Source: an archaeon
GTDB lineage: Archaea; Asgardarchaeota; Thorarchaeia; Thorarchaeales; Thorarchaeaceae
Assembly (NCBI GenBank): GCA_024275415.1
Contig: JAJRZD010000005.1
Location: 30,001 to 62,000, forward strand
DNA: 32,000 nucleotides
Direction of reading: 5' to 3'
Below, one piece after another: positions 699-23,671 of the stretch (position 1 is the stretch's first letter; the number at the start of each line of letters is the position of its first letter). Made by a program: the position numbers and the translations under genes. The notes below the pieces were generated by a model that worked only from the letters and a program-made list of their open reading frames with translations, was not told the origin of the DNA and ran no database searches.

Positions 699-3600
699 CT
701 ACTCTGAAACATCATCTTTCTTGTCTTTCTTGAGAAGCGACTCCACCTCTGCAATGAATTCATCCTTCGGATCCACTCTCTCTTTTTGTTCGGTTTTCTT
801 CCTTTTCTTGGCAGGTTTTTTCTTTGCTGGTGCTTCGTCCGGCTCAGAGATAGTGTCTGCTTCAATCTCTTCGTCAAGAGTGGTCTCTTCTGATTCGGGG
901 ACTGTCGTAGCTAGTTCCATGTCATGAACATCGGTCAATCCCATGCCCTGTCGTTGTAATATCGTATGGATACCGATGGGTGTGATGATCCCTTTCTCAG
1001 CCATGCTCATGAAAATGTCCAGAACTTCCATTTCTGACTTGTTGAGCAGGTTGGCCACAGGAGCAAGATAGTCTTTCACCTCAAACTCGGTCTGGTCACC
1101 AAGAGAGGCTTGGACATACTTGAACACCCTCATCTCATCCTTCTCTCCCTTGACTGAAGGGTTAAGGGTGTGAGGAATCATCATTTGATAGTTCAGTACT
1201 GTGTAGAGATTTGACACGATCCATTCGGGGTTGAAACAATCGACCAGTCCAGTCCACTTGGCTAGGTCATTCTTGTACTGTGACTCGAAGAGTTCGACGA
1301 AGAACTGCAAGCGGTCTCGTACCTCCTGAGTGATGCTAGAGTCACCAATCAATATCGCAAGGCAGTTCTCTCCTACCCTACTGTTTAGAATGAGGCCCTG
1401 ATAGTTGATTTCCTCAAGAGTGCCCATCTCGCCATTCTGTTTTATCTCACCATACATACTTGTTATGGCAGAGATGAACCCACTGATGAGGTCTGCCTGT
1501 ATCCTCGACTCACCAAAGGGGTGGTAGAAAAGGCATGTCCCTCGACCTCTGTAGACTATCATAAAGTGTCGTAGTGATGCGAGGATGTTGAAGTAGTCAT
1601 ATTGTGCCTTTTTACTGGCGAACATCTTTGCGCGGGACGCCCTGCTTCGTTTGGCCAATAACACTCCTGCAATAAGTCCCCCTAGCATCAAATAGAACAG
1701 TGGGTTATAGAATAGTGATAGTATCTGTATCACCATAACGCCAACTGGGTCTGCTATCACTTCTCGTGTGAGTGTACTTGTGGACATTGGCCACAGGTCA
1801 CGCCTCCCGTGGTACTTTACTACGACGGAAACGGAGGTGGCAGTGCCTTCTTCTTCTGGGACGACATAGCTGAGTTCAGCGACCCCGTTACTGTCCGTGA
1901 CACGGCTCAACGTGACGGTCAGGTTGTGGTCGTCCTCGAAGGTGACAGTGATGACGAACTCCACGGTCTCGTCTTCTAGGGGCTGCTGGACCCCGTCGAG
2001 CAACGTCGCTCGGATGACGATGGGTGCGTCCCTGACCACGTTCCCCACATACTCTACCGACAACGTGGGTGTGCCCTTCTCGTCCACGGTCAGCACCGCA
2101 GATGCAGTCCCTTCGTCACAGCCCTCTGCCACAGCTGAGAATGCGACTACGTACACTCCTGGGGAGTTGGTGATGTGGTAGTCGAGGTAATAGGTCTCGT
2201 CACCCTCCGAATAGGACATCTGGTAGGAAACACCGTCGATCGTGACGTTGACTGTCCCCCAATAGACAGGGAGGTCTCTATCAGAGTCGGTGAAGGTCAC
2301 TACGAACGTGATGGTCTCGTTCTCGTACTCGGTGTAGGTACTCTCTGAGGTGAGGGAGGTATGCAGGGCACGTACAATGATACCTGTGTCTATGACTTGG
2401 GAAGAGTAGTTCTCCTTGGAGAGGGTGAAGGTCAACGTGTGCGTGTCCAGCGACAGCATGACCGCGCTTATCGTGAAGGTGAACCTCCCAGCCACGGGCT
2501 CGGAATACGTGAGTGCTGACCCAGACCATGAGAACGACTCCCCGCTCGGGTCTATTAGTCCGTCCGTGTGGTCGTTGACGTACTCCACAGTGATCTCGAC
2601 CGTCTGGTTGAGGTACAGCACATCCGGGATAGTGTTCTCTGTGAAGACTAACCTCGTGGGGATGGGTTCAACGGTGAGCGATACCTCGCTCTTGAAGACC
2701 ACGTACCCGTGAGTGTAAGCAGAGATGTTACCGTCCAGCGTGGTGACCCCAAGCTCAGAACCCGTGAAGTTGAGGGTGTACGTCCCGTTACCTAGATCCG
2801 TAAGGGGGTGCACAGCCGTGCTGGTGGTCAGGTTCACCTGCATCCCTGGGAGGTAGTTGGAGTCAGTGTCCTGCATGGTAAGCCTGAGCTCGACCCATCC
2901 ATCATAGTAGATGGTCTGTGTGTCGAACCCACCGATGACTGTAATGACCTGTCCAGAGGTGGGGGTCTCTATGACCTCCACGGTGACCGTGAACGTGCGG
3001 TTGATACTGCCGTACCGCCACGTCCATACCTCCATCTGGTATGTCCCCAGCCCGTCCTGCCCGTCGAAGAGGAACTGATAGACCCCTGCACCGACATGGG
3101 CAAGGACATAGTCCGTACTCATATAGGTGGCATTGACAAGGGCATCCGTGATAGGCTGTCCGAAAGAGTCTAACACTGTCACGTCCAACGTCTGCGTGTG
3201 GGTGTAGTATATCTGGGTGGTCGTCCATGATGGCGTCACAGAACCACTGTCTATGACGATATACAATGTGTCTACTTGCCTTCCGGTGTCGTACCCTGTC
3301 TTGTTAGCCATGACCGTGGCGTTCCACGTGCCCAGCCCTATCGCTGAGGCGTCAAGGGTCAGGTGCCAACGCTCGTCTGTTGCCGAGTAGGTGAAGTCGT
3401 ACACGGTCGTGGTGTTGACGTACAGCCTGACTGTTGCCCCAGGGATGGGTAAGCTGTCGAAGGTGTAGATGACAGAGATGTCCACGGTCTCGAAATAAGT
3501 CGCGTTCAGGTCTGATGGGGAGATCCAGTCCACGTAGAACGTGTTCGGTGCGATGGTGATGTTGAGACCTGAAGTGGTGTTTGTCTGTCCCACATAACCG

Positions 3601-6020
3601 AACGACCACGCACTAATAGATGCAGAGTATGTCCCGATACCAATGTCCTCCCCTGGGATAGTGATGTTCCATACCGTGCCCGTATAGGTCAGGTCGTAGG
3701 TCACACCGTCAATGGTCACGTTCACCACCGCAGAGGGCACGTCTCCCCCGCCATAGGCGTAGTCCACCTGGAGGTTCAGGGAGTCCGTGTATATTATCGT
3801 CACGTTGGATGGTGTCCATATGACAGTCAGTGGTGACGTTGGCTCCTTGTGGATGGTCAGGGCCTGTGTGTCGTCGAACCTCGGGACATGTTCGGCCCTC
3901 GATGCAGAGATGTTCAATGCGTGGGTGGCAAACCCGAGCCCGTCAGTCCCGTTGAACTGGACCCAGTAGAAGCCCGCAGGGTCGTACTGTAGTGTCCACG
4001 TGGTCGTGTAGTCAGTGACTGTGACGAGGGCGTTCTGGACGATGGTGCCGTTGGCATAGCTGTATTGCACCGTCAGGTTTGTGTTCCCGATATAGCTGAT
4101 GTTGTCAGTGTTGGACCATGCCACCACGAGGGGTAACGTGTCATAGGTCAGGGTCACGTCAATGGTGATGCTCTGGTTCTCGATAGCGGACCCGCTCCCG
4201 TTCACCCTCACTTGATAGGTTCCAGCAGAGTAGCCTGTTGTGGAGATAGTGGCTGTCCACGTGCCGTTGTTGAGGTCAGTCATCCCTGTCCATGTCCCTC
4301 CATCGAAGGAATACTGGACTATGACCCCTGCGTATGATCCGTCTATCCCCTTCGGTGTGAAGGTATCGTCAAAGTCCACCCTGACCTCGAAGGTGCTGTC
4401 AGTAAAGGCGTCTATTGTCGGGTCTGCCGGGGTCAACGTCGTGGGGTAGAAGACCACGAACTCCTTCGTCAAGTACCCAGCCTCCGTGCCGTTCGTCCAA
4501 TAGACCTCGATGCGGTAAGTCCCGTTGTTGGACGTGTCGAGGTCAATGTCCCATGTGTAGGACGTAGCACCGTTGGTGACGGACTGGTTTGCAGGGTTAT
4601 ATACCACGGATGTAGAGTCCCAGATGGTGAGGTTCGTAGTCCCAGACGTGGCATTGGTCAGCGTACCGTCTTGGATGGTGTTAGTGATGAGGAGGTTGTC
4701 AGTGATGCTCACCGTGTCCAGTGATATGATCCCTGTGACGTAGTTCGGTGCGGTGGACACCAGTGACCACGTGCCGTTGCCCATGCTCGACACCAAGACA
4801 GTGTTCCCATCAAGCAGGTATGTGGTGTGGTTGGTAGGGTCTGTCCCGTTGTATAGCCCAGATGTGGTCCAGTCGTCCTGCTTGGTGAGGTTGAGGTATC
4901 TGCTCTGGGACTGGCTTGGATATGACACAACAGTGGTCAGGTTCCACATCACGTCGCCCCCGCTCACGGGAACGTCCCACACTGACTGTGCAGGAACGTC
5001 TTTCCTGTACCACAACGTGAGGTTGTGGTATATCCCGACGGACTGGTTGGAGTCGAAGGCGATGGAGGAGATGTTGGTGGGGCTCGTCCACGAAACACTG
5101 TTCCCACTGAGAGGGGTGCCGTTCGCACGCAAAGAGACCTCAGCGGGCTGGAACACCATCGGGAGGTTCGAGGACTGGTCCCAGGGCACGTAGGTGTAGT
5201 TCAGCAAAGCCTCGTACGCTTGGTTCTGGCTCCATGCATTTAGCTCTCTCGTGTAGAACCTCGTTTGGAACGCCCCTGTGGAACTCTCGGAGTTCCAGAT
5301 TATCATCGGGAACGCTGGACCACTCTTCTGCAAGGCGTTCCCGTCGATCAGGGCATAGTAGGTGCTGTCCCCCGTGAGGTTAGCGAGGGCTGTTATCGTC
5401 GTCCATACACTGCTACCTTCGTACACTAGTGCCTGTGGGCTGGTGACGTTGGAGGAGGAGAGGGCGTAGTCAGAGCGGACGACGAAGTAGGCATCCCCAT
5501 AGAGGGACGGATTATAAGTCGGTGTGCTGTGGAAGACGGAGTAGTTCAACAGGAGCCCGTCGTGGGGCTGGGCGTAGAAGCCCTGTGCGAGCTGCGTCAC
5601 GTTGGAGAGTGTGTCTTCCCTGATGTAGAAGTTCTGGGTCTGGTCGATGCTCCCGACGACCTCCCTTTCCACGATGGCGGTGAGGTTGTCTATGGTCATG
5701 TCCGCCCTGTACAGCGTCCAGCCTGCCATGTGGAACTGGGTGAGGTCCACTGTCCCGTTGTGCTGTGCGGTGCTGGCGTAGCTGTTCGTGACGGTGAAGG
5801 TCTGCCCTGTCACTTCCCGGGAGAAGTGCTGGACAGCTGTGGATGTGTTACCTTGACCGGAGGCCGAGGAGATAGAATGCACCGAAATGGCGTCCATCTC
5901 GATCACTTCACCATTTGAATCATTGAATAACGACAGTTCTTTGGGTTTGTCTGCAAGAGGAGTGCTCAGAAGAATGAGAAGACACAGTGCTAGTACAGGC
6001 AAGATGGTTTTCTGGTTCAT
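699..6020 (-). CDS. Giant type-I membrane protein: signal peptide, N-terminal domain, about 9-10 Ig-like repeats, one TM helix, cytoplasmic longin domain, winged helix, acidic/basic tail
   Basis: The ORF track starts at 6095, but ATG at 6020 has GGAGG 10 nt upstream and begins a signal peptide (MNQKTILPVLALCLLILLSTPLA). Thr/Val/Tyr-rich ~100-aa beta repeats (e.g. TDLNNGTWTATI, TDLGNGTYTLNF) carry many NxS/T sequons. TM: LFYNPLFYLMLGGLIAGVLLA followed by KRSR. Longin motif: GTCLFYHPF...DLISGFISAITSMY. Confidence 0.9.
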   Translation of the reverse strand: MNQKTILPVLALCLLILLSTPLADKPKELSLFNDSNGEVIEMDAISVHSISSASGQGNTSTAVQHFSREVTGQTFTVTNSYASTAQHNGTVDLTQFHMAGWTLYRADMTIDNLTAIVEREVVGSIDQTQNFYIREDTLSNVTQLAQGFYAQPHDGLLLNYSVFHSTPTYNPSLYGDAYFVVRSDYALSSSNVTSPQALVYEGSSVWTTITALANLTGDSTYYALIDGNALQKSGPAFPMIIWNSESSTGAFQTRFYTRELNAWSQNQAYEALLNYTYVPWDQSSNLPMVFQPAEVSLRANGTPLSGNSVSWTSPTNISSIAFDSNQSVGIYHNLTLWYRKDVPAQSVWDVPVSGGDVMWNLTTVVSYPSQSQSRYLNLTKQDDWTTSGLYNGTDPTNHTTYLLDGNTVLVSSMGNGTWSLVSTAPNYVTGIISLDTVSITDNLLITNTIQDGTLTNATSGTTNLTIWDSTSVVYNPANQSVTNGATSYTWDIDLDTSNNGTYRIEVYWTNGTEAGYLTKEFVVFYPTTLTPADPTIDAFTDSTFEVRVDFDDTFTPKGIDGSYAGVIVQYSFDGGTWTGMTDLNNGTWTATISTTGYSAGTYQVRVNGSGSAIENQSITIDVTLTYDTLPLVVAWSNTDNISYIGNTNLTVQYSYANGTIVQNALVTVTDYTTTWTLQYDPAGFYWVQFNGTDGLGFATHALNISASRAEHVPRFDDTQALTIHKEPTSPLTVIWTPSNVTIIYTDSLNLQVDYAYGGGDVPSAVVNVTIDGVTYDLTYTGTVWNITIPGEDIGIGTYSASISAWSFGYVGQTNTTSGLNITIAPNTFYVDWISPSDLNATYFETVDISVIYTFDSLPIPGATVRLYVNTTTVYDFTYSATDERWHLTLDASAIGLGTWNATVMANKTGYDTGRQVDTLYIVIDSGSVTPSWTTTQIYYTHTQTLDVTVLDSFGQPITDALVNATYMSTDYVLAHVGAGVYQFLFDGQDGLGTYQMEVWTWRYGSINRTFTVTVEVIETPTSGQVITVIGGFDTQTIYYDGWVELRLTMQDTDSNYLPGMQVNLTTSTAVHPLTDLGNGTYTLNFTGSELGVTTLDGNISAYTHGYVVFKSEVSLTVEPIPTRLVFTENTIPDVLYLNQTVEITVEYVNDHTDGLIDPSGESFSWSGSALTYSEPVAGRFTFTISAVMLSLDTHTLTFTLSKENYSSQVIDTGIIVRALHTSLTSESTYTEYENETITFVVTFTDSDRDLPVYWGTVNVTIDGVSYQMSYSEGDETYYLDYHITNSPGVYVVAFSAVAEGCDEGTASAVLTVDEKGTPTLSVEYVGNVVRDAPIVIRATLLDGVQQPLEDETVEFVITVTFEDDHNLTVTLSRVTDSNGVAELSYVVPEEEGTATSVSVVVKYHGRRDLWPMSTSTLTREVIADPVGVMVIQILSLFYNPLFYLMLGGLIAGVLLAKRSRASRAKMFASKKAQYDYFNILASLRHFMIVYRGRGTCLFYHPFGESRIQADLISGFISAITSMYGEIKQNGEMGTLEEINYQGLILNSRVGENCLAILIGDSSITQEVRDRLQFFVELFESQYKNDLAKWTGLVDCFNPEWIVSNLYTVLNYQMMIPHTLNPSVKGEKDEMRVFKYVQASLGDQTEFEVKDYLAPVANLLNKSEMEVLDIFMSMAEKGIITPIGIHTILQRQGMGLTDVHDMELATTVPESEETTLDEEIEADTISEPDEAPAKKKPAKKRKKTEQKERVDPKDEFIAEVESLLKKDKKDDVSE

Positions 6021-6368
6021 AGGTTTGCTTCCTCCATTGTCACCTTTGTTAGTCCCCTGTATGTATCGTGATGGTTGTTCGTGTGTGAAGGGCATATACT
6101 AAATCTATCCAATGGACAAAAATCGCACATCACGATATTTCTTTTGCATTCTCTTATATCATTGTTTAGGGGGAAGGTTCTCATATGAATACCTCAAGTA
6201 GAGGGGTGCCATTGCGATGCTATAGAGCTGTGATGGCAACCGGTTTCCGTGGTTTATTACTCCAACCAGAATGGAAATTGAAGATATATACGTATCTCAA
6301 TTAGCATGCATTCGATTAATCGAGCTGTTGGGATGGACGACCATTCGGTTTTACATCTAGTTAGTGGT

Positions 6369-6887
6369 TCATGTGTAGTACGATGGACCCGCTTCATCCG
6401 ATGAGGGAGGTGTAAGTGCTGGACTTCCCACGACCTCATTTAGTATTGCAATCACCATATCAACTGCTCCGTGTACTCTCCGCATCGTCCGCCACAACCT
6501 GTCATCTGAGAAGGCATCATCATACAATCGGTCTGACACCACGAAGCCTGGTCCCGGAGGTCCTTGTCCTTTTGGCTGGCCAGGTTTCGGCTGTATGAAC
6601 CCAAGGATGATTCCTTGCTGGAAGCTGAACTTGAGGGCTTTCATCTGGAATTGCTTCATCTTCTCTGGAGTAAGTACCTTGAGGTGCTGGGGCGAGATCA
6701 TGACTTGGGACTCGACTTGGATATACCGTTGCTCATTGGGTCTGACCACTGTAAAAAAGAAGCGCATGTATTTTACTTTGAACAAGAATTCCGCTCGTGC
6801 ATTCGAGATGCTTTCGACCTTGACCCCTTCATTAGAGAACCAGTTCTTCACTGAGTTCTTGACCATCTCTGACATATCTTCACTCAT
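6369..6887 (-). CDS. DUF2299-family conserved archaeal protein
   Basis: The pattern VKNWFSNEG...AEFLF...VVRP...ISPQH...RLYDDAFSDDRLWRTMRRV matches the remembered DUF2299 profile. Confidence 0.7.
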   Translation of the reverse strand: MSEDMSEMVKNSVKNWFSNEGVKVESISNARAEFLFKVKYMRFFFTVVRPNEQRYIQVESQVMISPQHLKVLTPEKMKQFQMKALKFSFQQGIILGFIQPKPGQPKGQGPPGPGFVVSDRLYDDAFSDDRLWRTMRRVHGAVDMVIAILNEVVGSPALTPPSSDEAGPSYYT

Positions 6888-6942
6888 TTTCGCACACTCA
6901 GCCTATTGTCTGAACTCTGGGCTACCACTTAATGGTTGTGTT

Positions 6943-7758
6943 CTACTCTCGCATGAACTGGATTTGGTCGTATCGCTCAGGAACCCTGTCCTGCCAGCAT
7001 GTGATTTGCTCTCTCACATCCGATATCATTGAAGTATCCCCTTTATTCACAAAGACCGCCACATCGCTGTTTATACGAGTTCGTCTTACTCCCCATGGAT
7101 CAACGAGCTGGCTGTGTCCGAAGTAGGTCTTCCCATCGAAGCCAAAGCCTACCCTATTCACCGCGGCAAAATACACCTGATTCTCGATAGCCCGTGCCAT
7201 GACCAGAGTGTCCCAGTGTTGTGATCTTGGATCCGGAAATGCAGCGGGCATTATGATCAGTTCAGCACCGTTGGTGGCAAGGCTCCTTGTCAATTCAGGG
7301 AAACGCACATCATAGCAGATTTCCAGTCCTACCTTGATTCCTCCAGCGTCCATGACGACTCCGGTATCGCCCCCTTGAAAAGTATTCTTCTCGTCTTGGA
7401 ATGGGTGCAGTTTCCGATATGTAGCGACAAGATTCCCGTGAGGGTTAGCAACCATGAGGGTGTTGAAGTACTTCTCACCAGCTGATTCGATGTCAGTGGC
7501 TACGACATACGCAGAATGCTCTTCAGCGACCTGCTGGATGAAATCGCTTGTAGCGCCCAAGATTCCCGGCCCTGCTCTTTCATAGTCGCTGTATCTGAAT
7601 CCTATTGCAAAGAGCTCAGGTAGTATGATGAACTCGCGATTGGCCGAAGTCTTATGTTGCGCAAGCATCTCCTTTGCCAATCGAAAATTCTCTTCTCTGT
7701 TCCCTTCCTTGCACGGCATCTGAACAAGTGCAACGCTGAAGTCCAAGGAATCACCCAT
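6943..7758 (-). CDS. Carbon-nitrogen hydrolase (nitrilase superfamily, Nit/omega-amidase-like)
   Basis: Intact Glu-Lys-Cys triad: LPELF, YRKLHPF, EICYDVRFPE; also ARAIENQ and HSQLVDPWG. Start set to ATG 7756-7758; the track uses an upstream GTG. Confidence 0.92.
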   Translation of the reverse strand: MGDSLDFSVALVQMPCKEGNREENFRLAKEMLAQHKTSANREFIILPELFAIGFRYSDYERAGPGILGATSDFIQQVAEEHSAYVVATDIESAGEKYFNTLMVANPHGNLVATYRKLHPFQDEKNTFQGGDTGVVMDAGGIKVGLEICYDVRFPELTRSLATNGAELIIMPAAFPDPRSQHWDTLVMARAIENQVYFAAVNRVGFGFDGKTYFGHSQLVDPWGVRRTRINSDVAVFVNKGDTSMISDVREQITCWQDRVPERYDQIQFMRE

Positions 7759-7887
7759 CAATAACGATGCCACCACTACATCATAAGGCTTATCTTCATC
7801 ATCTTATGAGGCGTAATCGTCTTAGCTCGCACGGACGTGTTGCTTGTGGTCAACGAAGTGAATACTGAGCCTGAAGGTAAACATGAT

Positions 7888-22477: not shown

Positions 22478-23671
22478 TCACATTGTAAGCTGGTTCCACT
22501 GTACATTCTGAGATATCTTCGGATACACCTGCTTGAGCTCGTGCATGACCTTTGAAATAATCGTGTTCGTAGGCTCTGAGCCAATCAGAATGCTTATTCT
22601 TTTCGTGATGAACTGCATCAAAGCTCTTAAACCATCACTGAGGATATCAGGCAGGATCTTGCCTTTAGTGGCAGCACTGGAAAGGGAACTACGAACCACC
22701 ACATCAATGTCCTCTTCGAGATCGACGAAGGAAAGCCAAGTGTATGTGTCCATCAATGCGTTACGTGACTCCACGAATATGTTCCGTGTCATCTTGTTCC
22801 CTAGCAGTCTTGCGCAGTTGGACAGGATCTCCTGTAGCACACTCGAATGTTGTACCAGAGTGGCTTGTGCCTCCGATACCCTCTCTACCGCATCCTTTTC
22901 CGCAAGCATGGCTATCTCGTCAAGGAACCTTCGCAGGTCACGGGTCTTGACTTTCTCAGCAGCTATCGCGAGGGGTGTTTCTCCATCGAGTTCACTGAGC
23001 GCAGCCGTGGTTTCTGGAGAAACCCCATCGATGACCTTCTCAGTCCTCTCTAAAGAGGTTGTTTGATAGATGTCCTCTGGTCTGACCGGATTGGTAAGCA
23101 CCACTGCCTTTTCCCAAATTGCGTTTGCAACAATGTTCATTGCGACCTCCAAAGGTATCTCAAGGAACTCAGCTGCTTCTCTCACAGAGATAGTTTCCGG
23201 AAGGAGCTTCAGGAATGAGTCCACTTCTGGGTTTTTTACATAAAGATCCCAATTCAGCTTCTGGCGAATAACACTGTCGGGCTTTACCTGGTCTAAGAGT
23301 AGCTCATCGATTACATGTTTCTCGTATCTGCTGTAGACTGCCAAGTCAATGTCGACCCAGCGTAGCAGATTGAATTGTTCCTCGAAGATCTCAATAAGTC
23401 GCCTAAGCTTGTCTCGTAGGATTTCATCATCCATTGACGCGCTGAGCGCACCGATCGTCCATTCTCCAAACTCCACCAGGATCTTGTAGTCCGTGCCTTC
23501 GAACGCCCGCGCTCGTGATGAAATCGATTGGTTCGCCTCGTCGAAGAACGAGGTCATGGCACTGATGAATGAGGAGATGAGGTCTGGGTCGAAGATTGCG
23601 TCAGTGAAATCCTTATGATACATGCATAGACCTGTTTCTCGCTTGATTATGTACAGGCTCTTGATGTTCAT
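22478..23671 (-). CDS. Soluble longin-domain protein with two winged-helix units and a helical C-domain (NPRL2-like architecture)
   Basis: N-terminal longin motif: SLYIIKRETGLCMYHKDF...DPDLISSFISAMTSFF. wHTH units: SVREAAEFLEIPLEVAMNIVANAIWEKAV and LDGETPLAIAAEK...LAEKDAV. Confidence 0.85.
   Translation of the reverse strand: MNIKSLYIIKRETGLCMYHKDFTDAIFDPDLISSFISAMTSFFDEANQSISSRARAFEGTDYKILVEFGEWTIGALSASMDDEILRDKLRRLIEIFEEQFNLLRWVDIDLAVYSRYEKHVIDELLLDQVKPDSVIRQKLNWDLYVKNPEVDSFLKLLPETISVREAAEFLEIPLEVAMNIVANAIWEKAVVLTNPVRPEDIYQTTSLERTEKVIDGVSPETTAALSELDGETPLAIAAEKVKTRDLRRFLDEIAMLAEKDAVERVSEAQATLVQHSSVLQEILSNCARLLGNKMTRNIFVESRNALMDTYTWLSFVDLEEDIDVVVRSSLSSAATKGKILPDILSDGLRALMQFITKRISILIGSEPTNTIISKVMHELKQVYPKISQNVQWNQLTM

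Follow-up and report, generated by a model that had tools for sequence, protein, structure and literature searches.

Membrane-held roadblock/longin platforms on which small GTPases dock are known from Ragulator (LAMTOR1–5) with the Rag GTPases and from bacterial MglB–MglA; in NPRL2 and NPRL3 of GATOR1, winged-helix-type domains come after a longin domain, and in the longin SNAREs (VAMP7, Sec22 and Ykt6) and the adaptor protein (AP) complexes, it resides in a membrane-anchored protein and in soluble σ and μ subunits, respectively. Asgard archaea encode dozens of longin/roadblock proteins and small GTPases, the role of which bears on the origin of the eukaryotic cell; to our knowledge, internal membrane structures are absent or infrequent in the cultured species. 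Fusions of longin domains with Vps28-C, TPR, Ig-like and HTH/PCI domains were described by Makarova et al. (PMC10936438), and complex surface proteins have been seen on Loki cells by Rodrigues-Oliveira et al. (PMC9834061). Here, we analyse a giant gene lying within 32 000 nt of thorarchaeal DNA (contig JAJRZD010000005.1, positions 30 001–62 000, assembly GCA_024275415.1; hereafter, the window), which encodes a surface glycoprotein joined through one membrane span to a cytoplasmic longin domain and a winged helix. The literature searched, which was incomplete and did not extend to the asCOG tables, contains no description of such a protein. A preliminary description, made from the sequence without database searches, had nonetheless allowed that similar architectures might already be catalogued, and this was fair, given that Liu et al. 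(bioRxiv 10.1101/2020.10.19.343400) report 'NPRL2-like longin' families and fusions in both Thor and Loki.

Overall architecture and membrane topology

The open reading frame (ORF) occupies 699..6095 of the window on the reverse (−) strand, as do all features of the gene given below; it is open for 1798 residues from its first ATG, and its stop codon lies at 699–701. A database entry (P0153) is identical to the ORF product, but is 1773 residues long, and, therefore, translation most likely starts at Met26 (nt 6020), which is the end coordinate previously given for the gene. Residue numbers nevertheless count from the upstream ATG (the 1798-residue version) throughout.

A hydropathy scan of the whole protein reveals two hydrophobic stretches only, at residues 30–48 and 1451–1481. 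The former is the core of a signal peptide (residues 26–49; 5949..6020) that has a short basic n-region and a small-residue end preceding Asp-Lys, and the orthologues begin with a signal peptide of the same kind. The latter (1653..1745) is interpreted as a single membrane span together with a hydrophobic juxtamembrane stretch on its outer side, and a hydrophobic stretch of 30–37 residues likewise directly precedes the conserved module in the homologues. It is followed by a basic juxtamembrane segment (net charge +6) and a helix, α0 (residues 1482–1507; 1575..1652; delineated from the model described below and a charge count), with a P-K-K-rich consensus across the family. The distribution of N-x-S/T sequons is strikingly asymmetric: there are 51 in residues 1–1440, versus 19 expected from composition, and a single one in the tail, versus 1.4 expected, from which the ectodomain is predicted to be heavily N-glycosylated.

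Because the signal peptide, the sequon asymmetry and the positive-inside rule all agree on an N-out/C-in topology, we infer, with good support, a type I membrane protein having its ectodomain outside the cell and its longin/winged-helix tail in the cytoplasm. The location of the tail had been named beforehand as a point on which the preliminary description would stand or fall, and the same three lines of evidence place it inside; likewise, the signal peptide and the single transmembrane helix (~1655–1740) that had been proposed are both recovered by the hydropathy scan. A two-helix hairpin within the 31-residue stretch was considered and rejected, as each half would comprise only ~15 residues, and a single span agrees with the asymmetry of sequons and charge. 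Nor does the protein have the layout of a PGF-CTERM/archaeosortase substrate, given that the anchor is followed by 317 residues, with two folded domains amongst them. Taken with the fold of the tail, the evidence of the anchor, signal peptide, sequons and charges bears out the receptor-like architecture first proposed: a surface glycoprotein with one span and a cytoplasmic longin domain and winged helix is real.

The cytoplasmic longin domain

An AlphaFold2 model of residues 1483–1740 was calculated from an alignment of 121 tails, and yields a two-domain cytoplasmic unit, longin plus winged helix, with a predicted local distance difference test (pLDDT) value of 90.7 and a predicted template modelling (pTM) score of 0.84. 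The first domain (residues 1508–1634; 1194..1574) was delimited using the model, structural comparisons with Foldseek and VIA, and column conservation, and has the topology β1-β2-α1-β3-β4-β5-α2-α3. In model numbering, DSSP assigns strands to 26–33 and 38–44, a helix to 52–69, strands to 80–83, 86–92 and 96–102, and helices to 108–130 and 141–152; this is the order of secondary structure elements that defines a longin, including the extra helix at the C-terminus.

Both structural comparisons rest on the predicted model. With Foldseek, the top PDB matches of the tail are all longin or roadblock proteins (probability 1.00), and include ζ-COP, Fuzzy, Mon1/Ccz1, TRAPPC1/Bet5 and AP σ, with template modelling (TM) scores by target of 0.64–0.68 for Bet5/TRAPPC1. 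With VIA, solved longins superpose on model residues 25–153 with Z-scores of 10–12.7 and root mean square deviations of 2.8–3.5 Å for 113–130 aligned residues; amongst these are Fuzzy LD1, AP μ and σ, Bet5, Sec22, VAMP7, sedlin and the solved Lokiarchaeota longin 8yqg. Roadblock domains score similarly (Z of 9.5–11.6), but over shorter ranges (94–108 residues): the longin alignments reach model residues 153–159, whereas those of the roadblocks end at 119–131. A helix at model residues 3–24 precedes β1; the roadblock alignments begin only at residues 21–23 and do not use it. As the matches that cover the C-terminal helices are longins, 'longin' is a better label than 'roadblock', and, according to the model, the cytoplasmic domain adopts a longin fold. 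The preliminary description had put this domain at ~1240–1580, in close agreement with the limits given here.

Helix α1 of the domain carries the family signature D-P-D-L-I-S-G-F-I-S-A-I-x-S-F. Conservation across the family alignment peaks here: Leu54, Gly57, Phe58 and Ala61 (model numbering) are each at least 96% conserved. In dimers of roadblock and longin domains, this helix is situated at the face that serves for dimerization and as the GTPase platform (Levine 2013, as cited in PMC10933270). A prediction of the tail homodimer, using two copies and the family alignment, scored 0.01 against a mark of 0.42, and gives no verdict either way.

The winged helix, linker and C-terminal motif

The longin domain is followed by a winged-helix-like domain (residues 1636–1715; 951..1190), as judged from the models, VIA and a charge count, and the two appear to form one unit in the model. 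Modelled alone, the winged helix has a pLDDT of 85, and nearly all of its top 50 VIA matches are themselves winged helices, with Z-scores of 5.5–8.7, a range that amounts to moderate evidence only; Foldseek gives weak matches (best E-value 0.06). Weak Pfam matches to NirdL-like_HTH are found in 21 of 98 family members. The domain agrees with the helix-turn-helix/wing segment (~960–1150) of the preliminary description. However, the third helix does not present the basic or polar surface of the recognition helix in DNA-binding winged helices of the Lrp/AsnC and MarR type: its net charge is −3 (family mean −1.2), and that of the whole domain is also −3. Because this helix is acidic, DNA binding is unlikely. 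Indeed, the best full-length structural matches are winged helices that bind peptides or proteins, namely, the recognition elements for ribosomally synthesized and post-translationally modified peptides (RiPPs) and the insert of MetAP2/Ebp1.

Beyond the winged helix, the model confidence is low past model residue 235. The linker (residues 1716–1779; 759..950) lacks column conservation and is probably disordered; it consists of an acidic stretch (net charge −14) followed by a Lys-rich patch (+7), the latter not being conserved in the orthologues. By contrast, the protein ends in a conserved motif with amphipathic-helix spacing, F-[VIL]-x-[DE]-V-E-x-L-[LM] (residues 1780–1788; 732..758). Thus, the charged tail noted at the outset resolves into an acidic linker and a basic patch, to which a conserved end motif can be added. 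Of 25 aligned orthologues, 23 possess the motif: position 1783 is Glu or Asp in 23, 1787 is Leu in 22 and 1788 is Leu or Met in 23 of them. Across the wider set of collected proteins, it occurs in 104 of 255, versus 0.2 expected after shuffling; in each case, it lies no more than a few dozen residues from the C-terminus, and some proteins carry it twice. It fits the eukaryotic acidic-dileucine pattern [DE]xxxL[LI], although this is a pattern match only. Members of the Lokiarchaeia type lack the Thor motif (alignment A4); over the C-terminal ~250 columns of the same alignment, they are seen to end in a Lys-rich stretch and a helical, TPR-like extension.

The ectodomain

The ectodomain comprises a head, a stalk and a membrane-proximal region. 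The head (residues ~50–560; 4416..5948) is sequon-rich and non-repetitive, and is unrelated to the repeats that follow; over its ~510 residues, identity across the Thorarchaeota is 45–60%, with many invariant Trp, Asn and Gly residues, such that it is conserved as strongly as the tail. It matches no Pfam family, and an ESM Atlas feature search with residues 50–560 returned no usable match. The stalk (residues ~560–1300; 2196..4415) is built from ~7–8 tandem repeats of ~100 residues. These were not detected by self-BLAST of the ectodomain and were revealed by profile–profile comparison alone: hhalign between slices of the orthologue alignment gives register shifts of ~100 residues with probabilities of 97–99% and E-values of 10−11 to 2 × 10−20. 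The final ~145 residues before the anchor (residues ~1300–1450; 1746..2195) are weakly related to the repeats.

The repeats are probably Ig-like β-sandwiches. In this protein, the Pfam signals are sub-threshold (Invasin_D3 at residues 1069–1121 scores 19.4 bits, where the cut-off is 33, and Big_1, in the membrane-proximal region at residues 1359–1411, scores 16.4 bits, where it is 34.9), but they improve in the 25 full-length orthologues, where Invasin_D3 is found in seven (best E-value 2 × 10−8), Big_1 in six, CarboxypepD_reg in five and MG4 in three. The 'Ig' label of the preliminary description is, therefore, upheld by weak signals in this protein and better ones in its orthologues, rather than by a match above threshold. 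Similarly, its ~1400 residues of sequon-rich β-repeats hold for the sequons and for residues ~560–1300, but not for the first ~510 residues, which form the non-repetitive head. The segment from ~514 to 694 is collinear with a Loki-type family member, P0051 (25% identity, E-value 2 × 10−8).

Distribution of the cytoplasmic module

A HMMER search of 1.84 billion representatives (at 50% identity) recovered 471 relatives of the cytoplasmic module, most of which are 1000–3000 residues long, begin with a signal peptide and carry the module near the C-terminus, just after a hydrophobic stretch. At an E-value of 10−10 or better, the module is matched in 109 of the 121 genomes sampled from the phylum, including all 52 of the high-quality ones, usually in several copies. 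The relatives fall into a close group, which is made up of Thorarchaeota, and a distant one, in which Lokiarchaeia (for example, Ca. Lokiarchaeum ossiferum and Ca. Harpocratesius repetitus) are represented and the ectodomains are of the fn3, PKD or β-propeller type; a free-standing soluble version (P0046) is also found. Judging from these sequences, the cytoplasmic module is far more widespread than any single ectodomain.

A structural search of the ESM Atlas found that proteins from outside the Asgard archaea, namely, bacterial OmpA/BON-family proteins, Chloroflexota SH3_3 proteins and Thermoplasmatota DUF11/CARDB surface proteins, match the helix-plus-longin part with TM-scores of ~0.5 (model m612812682264). 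Membrane-linked longin/roadblock-like modules may, thus, exist more broadly.

Paralogues and the small-GTPase question

The family profile matches 20 longin domains in the host genome, which answers the call for a count of paralogues made in the preliminary description; the giant ectodomain is found on one gene only. The paralogues share the α1 signature D-P-x-L-I-S-G-F, and occur in four kinds of protein. The first kind is soluble and combines the longin domain with one to several winged helices; an example, P0002 (397 residues), is encoded within the window (22478–23671 (−)). This protein has an N-terminal longin domain (D-P-D-L-I-S-S-F-I-S-A) followed by helical, winged-helix-like domains; the layout resembles that of NPRL2, and the protein is without sequence matches in Pfam or the PDB. 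In the second kind, a long TPR array precedes a C-terminal longin domain (~600 residues; L004:22–1887 (+) and L007:49–1848 (+)). The third comprises four proteins of ~355–395 residues, with 3–7 predicted membrane spans and a C-terminal longin domain (L023:799–1866 (+), L024:1498–2577 (−), L030:718–1899 (+) and L033:1402–2502 (−)), and represents, on the basis of these predictions, a second way of placing a longin at the membrane.

The fourth kind is a 656-residue protein encoded on contig C115 (L034:10569–12539 (−)), in which an Arf-family GTPase (Pfam Arf, E-value 3 × 10−18) lies upstream of the longin domain; the full order is a ~110-residue N-terminal domain, the Arf domain, a long linker, the longin domain and a faint C-terminal match to HTH_47. 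Its neighbours are NadA, an NAD kinase–MarR fusion, a β-CASP nuclease, DNA methylases and a SAVED-domain ORF. This fusion, which agrees with GTPase–longin fusions published for Asgard archaea (PMC10933270), is the only direct hint here that the longin subfamily works with small GTPases. Within the close family, there is no GTPase fusion, as none of the P-loop motifs in 230 family proteins is accompanied by a matching NKxD.

Genomic context and integrity of the gene

The host genome is 3.5 Mb in size and 92.9% complete, and the closest protein relatives of the giant ORF are all labelled Candidatus Thorarchaeota. Directly upstream of the gene are a DUF2299 gene and a CN-hydrolase gene (6369–7776 (−)). 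The order is retained at two orthologous places on three contigs, with both neighbours present in L013, and DUF2299 in L011/L012, and, therefore, the giant gene is a vertically inherited orthologue. These two are also the only neighbours conserved across the orthologous loci. The only PDB relative of DUF2299 is a weak one, 3cxj (E-value 0.0036), for which no function is known. In another thorarchaeon, a gene encoding 3040 residues with no Pfam match lies between DUF2299 and the orthologue (L011/L012:670–9792 (+)), and proteins of ~3000 residues also share the head domain; together, these suggest tandem paralogues of the surface protein. Directly downstream (187–630 (−)), a 147-residue ORF encodes a small acidic domain with a 45-residue Lys/Thr/Pro-rich tail, and has no Pfam match. 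For the giant gene itself, a look-up of public sequencing runs returned none.

The ORF is uneven in composition: the G+C content at third codon positions (GC3) is 0.72–0.79 in the part encoding the ectodomain (1750–5950), versus 0.53–0.58 in the part encoding the tail and 0.48–0.57 in eleven neighbouring genes. The step is not present in the orthologues of L012 and L013. A recent cassette swap of the ectodomain is unsupported, since a search for a donor found no closer relative of the head in the database: its best relatives are 54–60% identical, and are no closer than those of the tail.

Possible functions of the giant protein

Our preferred reading, which we hold tentatively and with a little less than even confidence, is that the tail provides a membrane-tethered longin platform that would pair with longin or roadblock partners, and recruit or regulate a small GTPase beneath a surface contact. 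The basic segment and its helix hold the longin/winged-helix unit close under the membrane, and the conserved central helix α1 would pair with another longin or roadblock protein, be it a second copy of the tail or one of the many soluble longin/winged-helix paralogues of the genome. This pairing would, in turn, recruit or regulate an Arf/Rag-like small GTPase under the site of ectodomain contact, with the winged helix and the C-terminal motif serving as putative protein-binding, rather than DNA-binding, sites. Such a platform could serve either outside-in signalling or the inside-out positioning of the surface protein. The coupling of an outside contact to a longin/GTPase module, as first proposed, may draw indirect support from the class of the fold and from one Arf-fused paralogue.

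Several observations count against this proposal. Longin domains also have functions that are independent of GTPases, for example, in SNAREs and the SRX domain. At the sequence level, the tail matches no Pfam or NCBIfam family at E-values up to 1, and searches of PDB sequences with the family profile and with two soluble paralogues returned rows at chance level only, NPRL2 and NPRL3 not being amongst them; faint matches to Pfam longin families are confined to the paralogues (Fuz_longin_1, E-value 0.01; Longin, E-value 0.044). The GTPase-activating protein (GAP)-type longins (FLCN, SMCR8/C9orf72 and NPRL2) are marked by a Gly-Pro motif at the end of the β1–β2 loop (PMC12290439). This is absent here: the equivalent Gly37 (98% Gly) is followed by Thr (69%), Val or Leu, and then by Cys (85%), with no proline. 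Nor is a conserved arginine finger assignable from column conservation, which is only partial for Arg at model positions 97 (56%) and 111 (62% Arg, 26% Lys). Additionally, no GTPase, roadblock or longin gene is adjacent, either here or in the three orthologous loci, and the Arf-like/longin fusion, which is encoded on a different contig, has neither a surface protein nor an adaptor beside it.

An alternative is a structural role, in which the family forms the glycoprotein coat (the 'surface densities') of Asgard cells and the tail, acting without a GTPase, does no more than oligomerize the proteins or tie them to the membrane or cytoskeleton. In favour of this are the great size and high sequon content of the ectodomains, the presence of this multi-copy family in nearly all sampled Asgard genomes, and the complex surface proteins that cryo-tomography shows on Asgard cells, which lack an ordered S-layer (PMC9834061). 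Moreover, longin and roadblock domains act as dimerization modules (PMC10933270), and the spacing of small residues in helix α1 (Gly57…Ala61 and Ser60…Ser64) is typical of tight helix packing; the lack of an adjacent GTPase gene is also in keeping with this role. Nevertheless, a simple anchor has no need of a two-domain unit in which the conserved winged helix and C-terminal motif persist despite swaps of the ectodomain, and soluble, TPR-linked and GTPase-fused proteins, which cannot anchor a coat, carry longin domains of the same subfamily; we consider this explanation possible, but somewhat unlikely. A signal for sorting or turnover, in which the tail, and above all its C-terminal helix on a flexible linker, is recognized by adaptors in the cytoplasm (longin-fold, adaptin-like or ESCRT/Vps4-type, where ESCRT is the endosomal sorting complex required for transport) that direct the surface protein to protrusions, vesicles or removal, would make sense of a [DE]xxxL[LI] motif that, in nearly all orthologues and far above chance, terminates a disordered acidic linker. 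Indeed, dileucine motifs in eukaryotic cargo tails are bound by the longin-fold AP σ, and AP σ and μ are amongst the best structural matches of the tail. Yet, a short pattern match is weak evidence, the motif was seen in the Thorarchaeota group only, with the Lokiarchaeia group ending differently, such sorting machinery is undemonstrated in any Asgard archaeon, and the tail's own longin domain would be left unexplained, all of which render this role improbable.

The winged helix raises the further prospect of a membrane-tethered transcription regulator akin to ToxR or CadC, binding DNA either at the membrane or following proteolytic release. Lrp/AsnC, LexA and MecI are found amongst its structural matches, family members show weak HTH matches in Pfam, some homologues bear the Joint Genome Institute (JGI) label 'Lrp family transcriptional regulator', and the linker of the giant protein contains a Lys-rich patch; but the presumed recognition helix is acidic, as is the net charge of the entire domain, the Lys-rich patch is not conserved, and the closest full-length matches bind proteins or peptides, making such a function very unlikely. 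We find it scarcely credible that the ORF is a chimera from a mis-assembled metagenome bin: the jump in codon composition between the parts encoding the ectodomain and the tail would be in keeping with such an artefact, but the reading frame is intact, the synteny upstream is conserved, and full-length orthologues that are collinear through the head, repeats, anchor, longin domain, winged helix and end motif are present in dozens of independent Thorarchaeota assemblies.

A more far-reaching version of the GTPase-platform proposal would make the family the plasma-membrane end of the Asgard longin/small-GTPase expansion, with receptors whose own longin platform (and, in Thor, the dileucine-like motif) would be read by soluble NPRL2-like paralogues and Arf/Rag-like GTPases. 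This is speculative and we rate it as quite improbable; if true, it would represent a pre-eukaryotic form of cargo-tail–adaptor–GTPase recognition, operating at the cell surface before endomembranes existed. For the role of the Asgard longin proteins and small GTPases, a module that is matched in every high-quality genome sampled, and that links giant glycosylated surface proteins to a longin platform beneath the membrane, provides a concrete place to look. The homologues in the cultured Ca. Lokiarchaeum ossiferum (for example, WP_371805894.1) make its partners and localization directly testable, as well as what the 'surface densities' of cryo-tomograms consist of, and the conserved C-terminal dileucine-like motif offers a second, cheap experimental handle.

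Comparison with known systems

On the outside of the cell, the nearest likeness is to the intimin/invasin-type adhesins (Big_1 and Invasin_D3), which also consist of a rod of ~100-residue β-sandwich repeats with a distal head. These are, however, autotransporters that are anchored by an outer-membrane β-barrel and lack a cytoplasmic domain, unlike the giant protein.

On the inside, the LAMTOR and MglB chains match the tail with VIA Z-scores of 8.8–11.6, and the resemblance to Ragulator/Rag and MglB–MglA would lie in a membrane-held docking platform for small GTPases. Ragulator is, nevertheless, tethered by the lipidated LAMTOR1, has no ectodomain and is of the roadblock type, whereas the giant protein is transmembrane, has the helix order of a longin, and its binding of a GTPase is only proposed. 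With NPRL2/NPRL3, the common feature is the succession of longin and winged-helix-type domains, which recurs, with tandem winged helices, in the soluble paralogues of the tail, one of which gives a faint match to HTH_NPRL3 (E-value 0.031). The eukaryotic proteins are soluble and share no sequence-level match with the tail in Pfam or the PDB, the tail is devoid of their Gly-Pro motif, and GATOR1 contains nothing like the ectodomain or anchor of the giant protein.

Amongst the adaptors, σ and μ chains of AP-4, AP-3, AP-5, AP-2 and AP-1 match the tail with Z-scores of 9.7–11.8, and the tail itself ends in a dileucine-pattern motif. In the AP complexes, the longin domain belongs to the soluble adaptor and the motif to the cargo; here, both are found in one chain, and no partner equivalent to a large adaptin subunit has been identified. 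Lastly, the longin SNAREs share with the giant protein a longin domain in a membrane-anchored polypeptide (Z-scores of 10.1–11.6 for VAMP7 and Sec22), but they are tail-anchored, have the longin domain at the N-terminus and lack an ectodomain, whereas the giant protein is of type I and has no SNARE heptad motif. A helical segment at the C-terminus of these SNAREs is able to fold back onto their longin domain, and offers a possible parallel for the conserved motif that terminates the giant protein.

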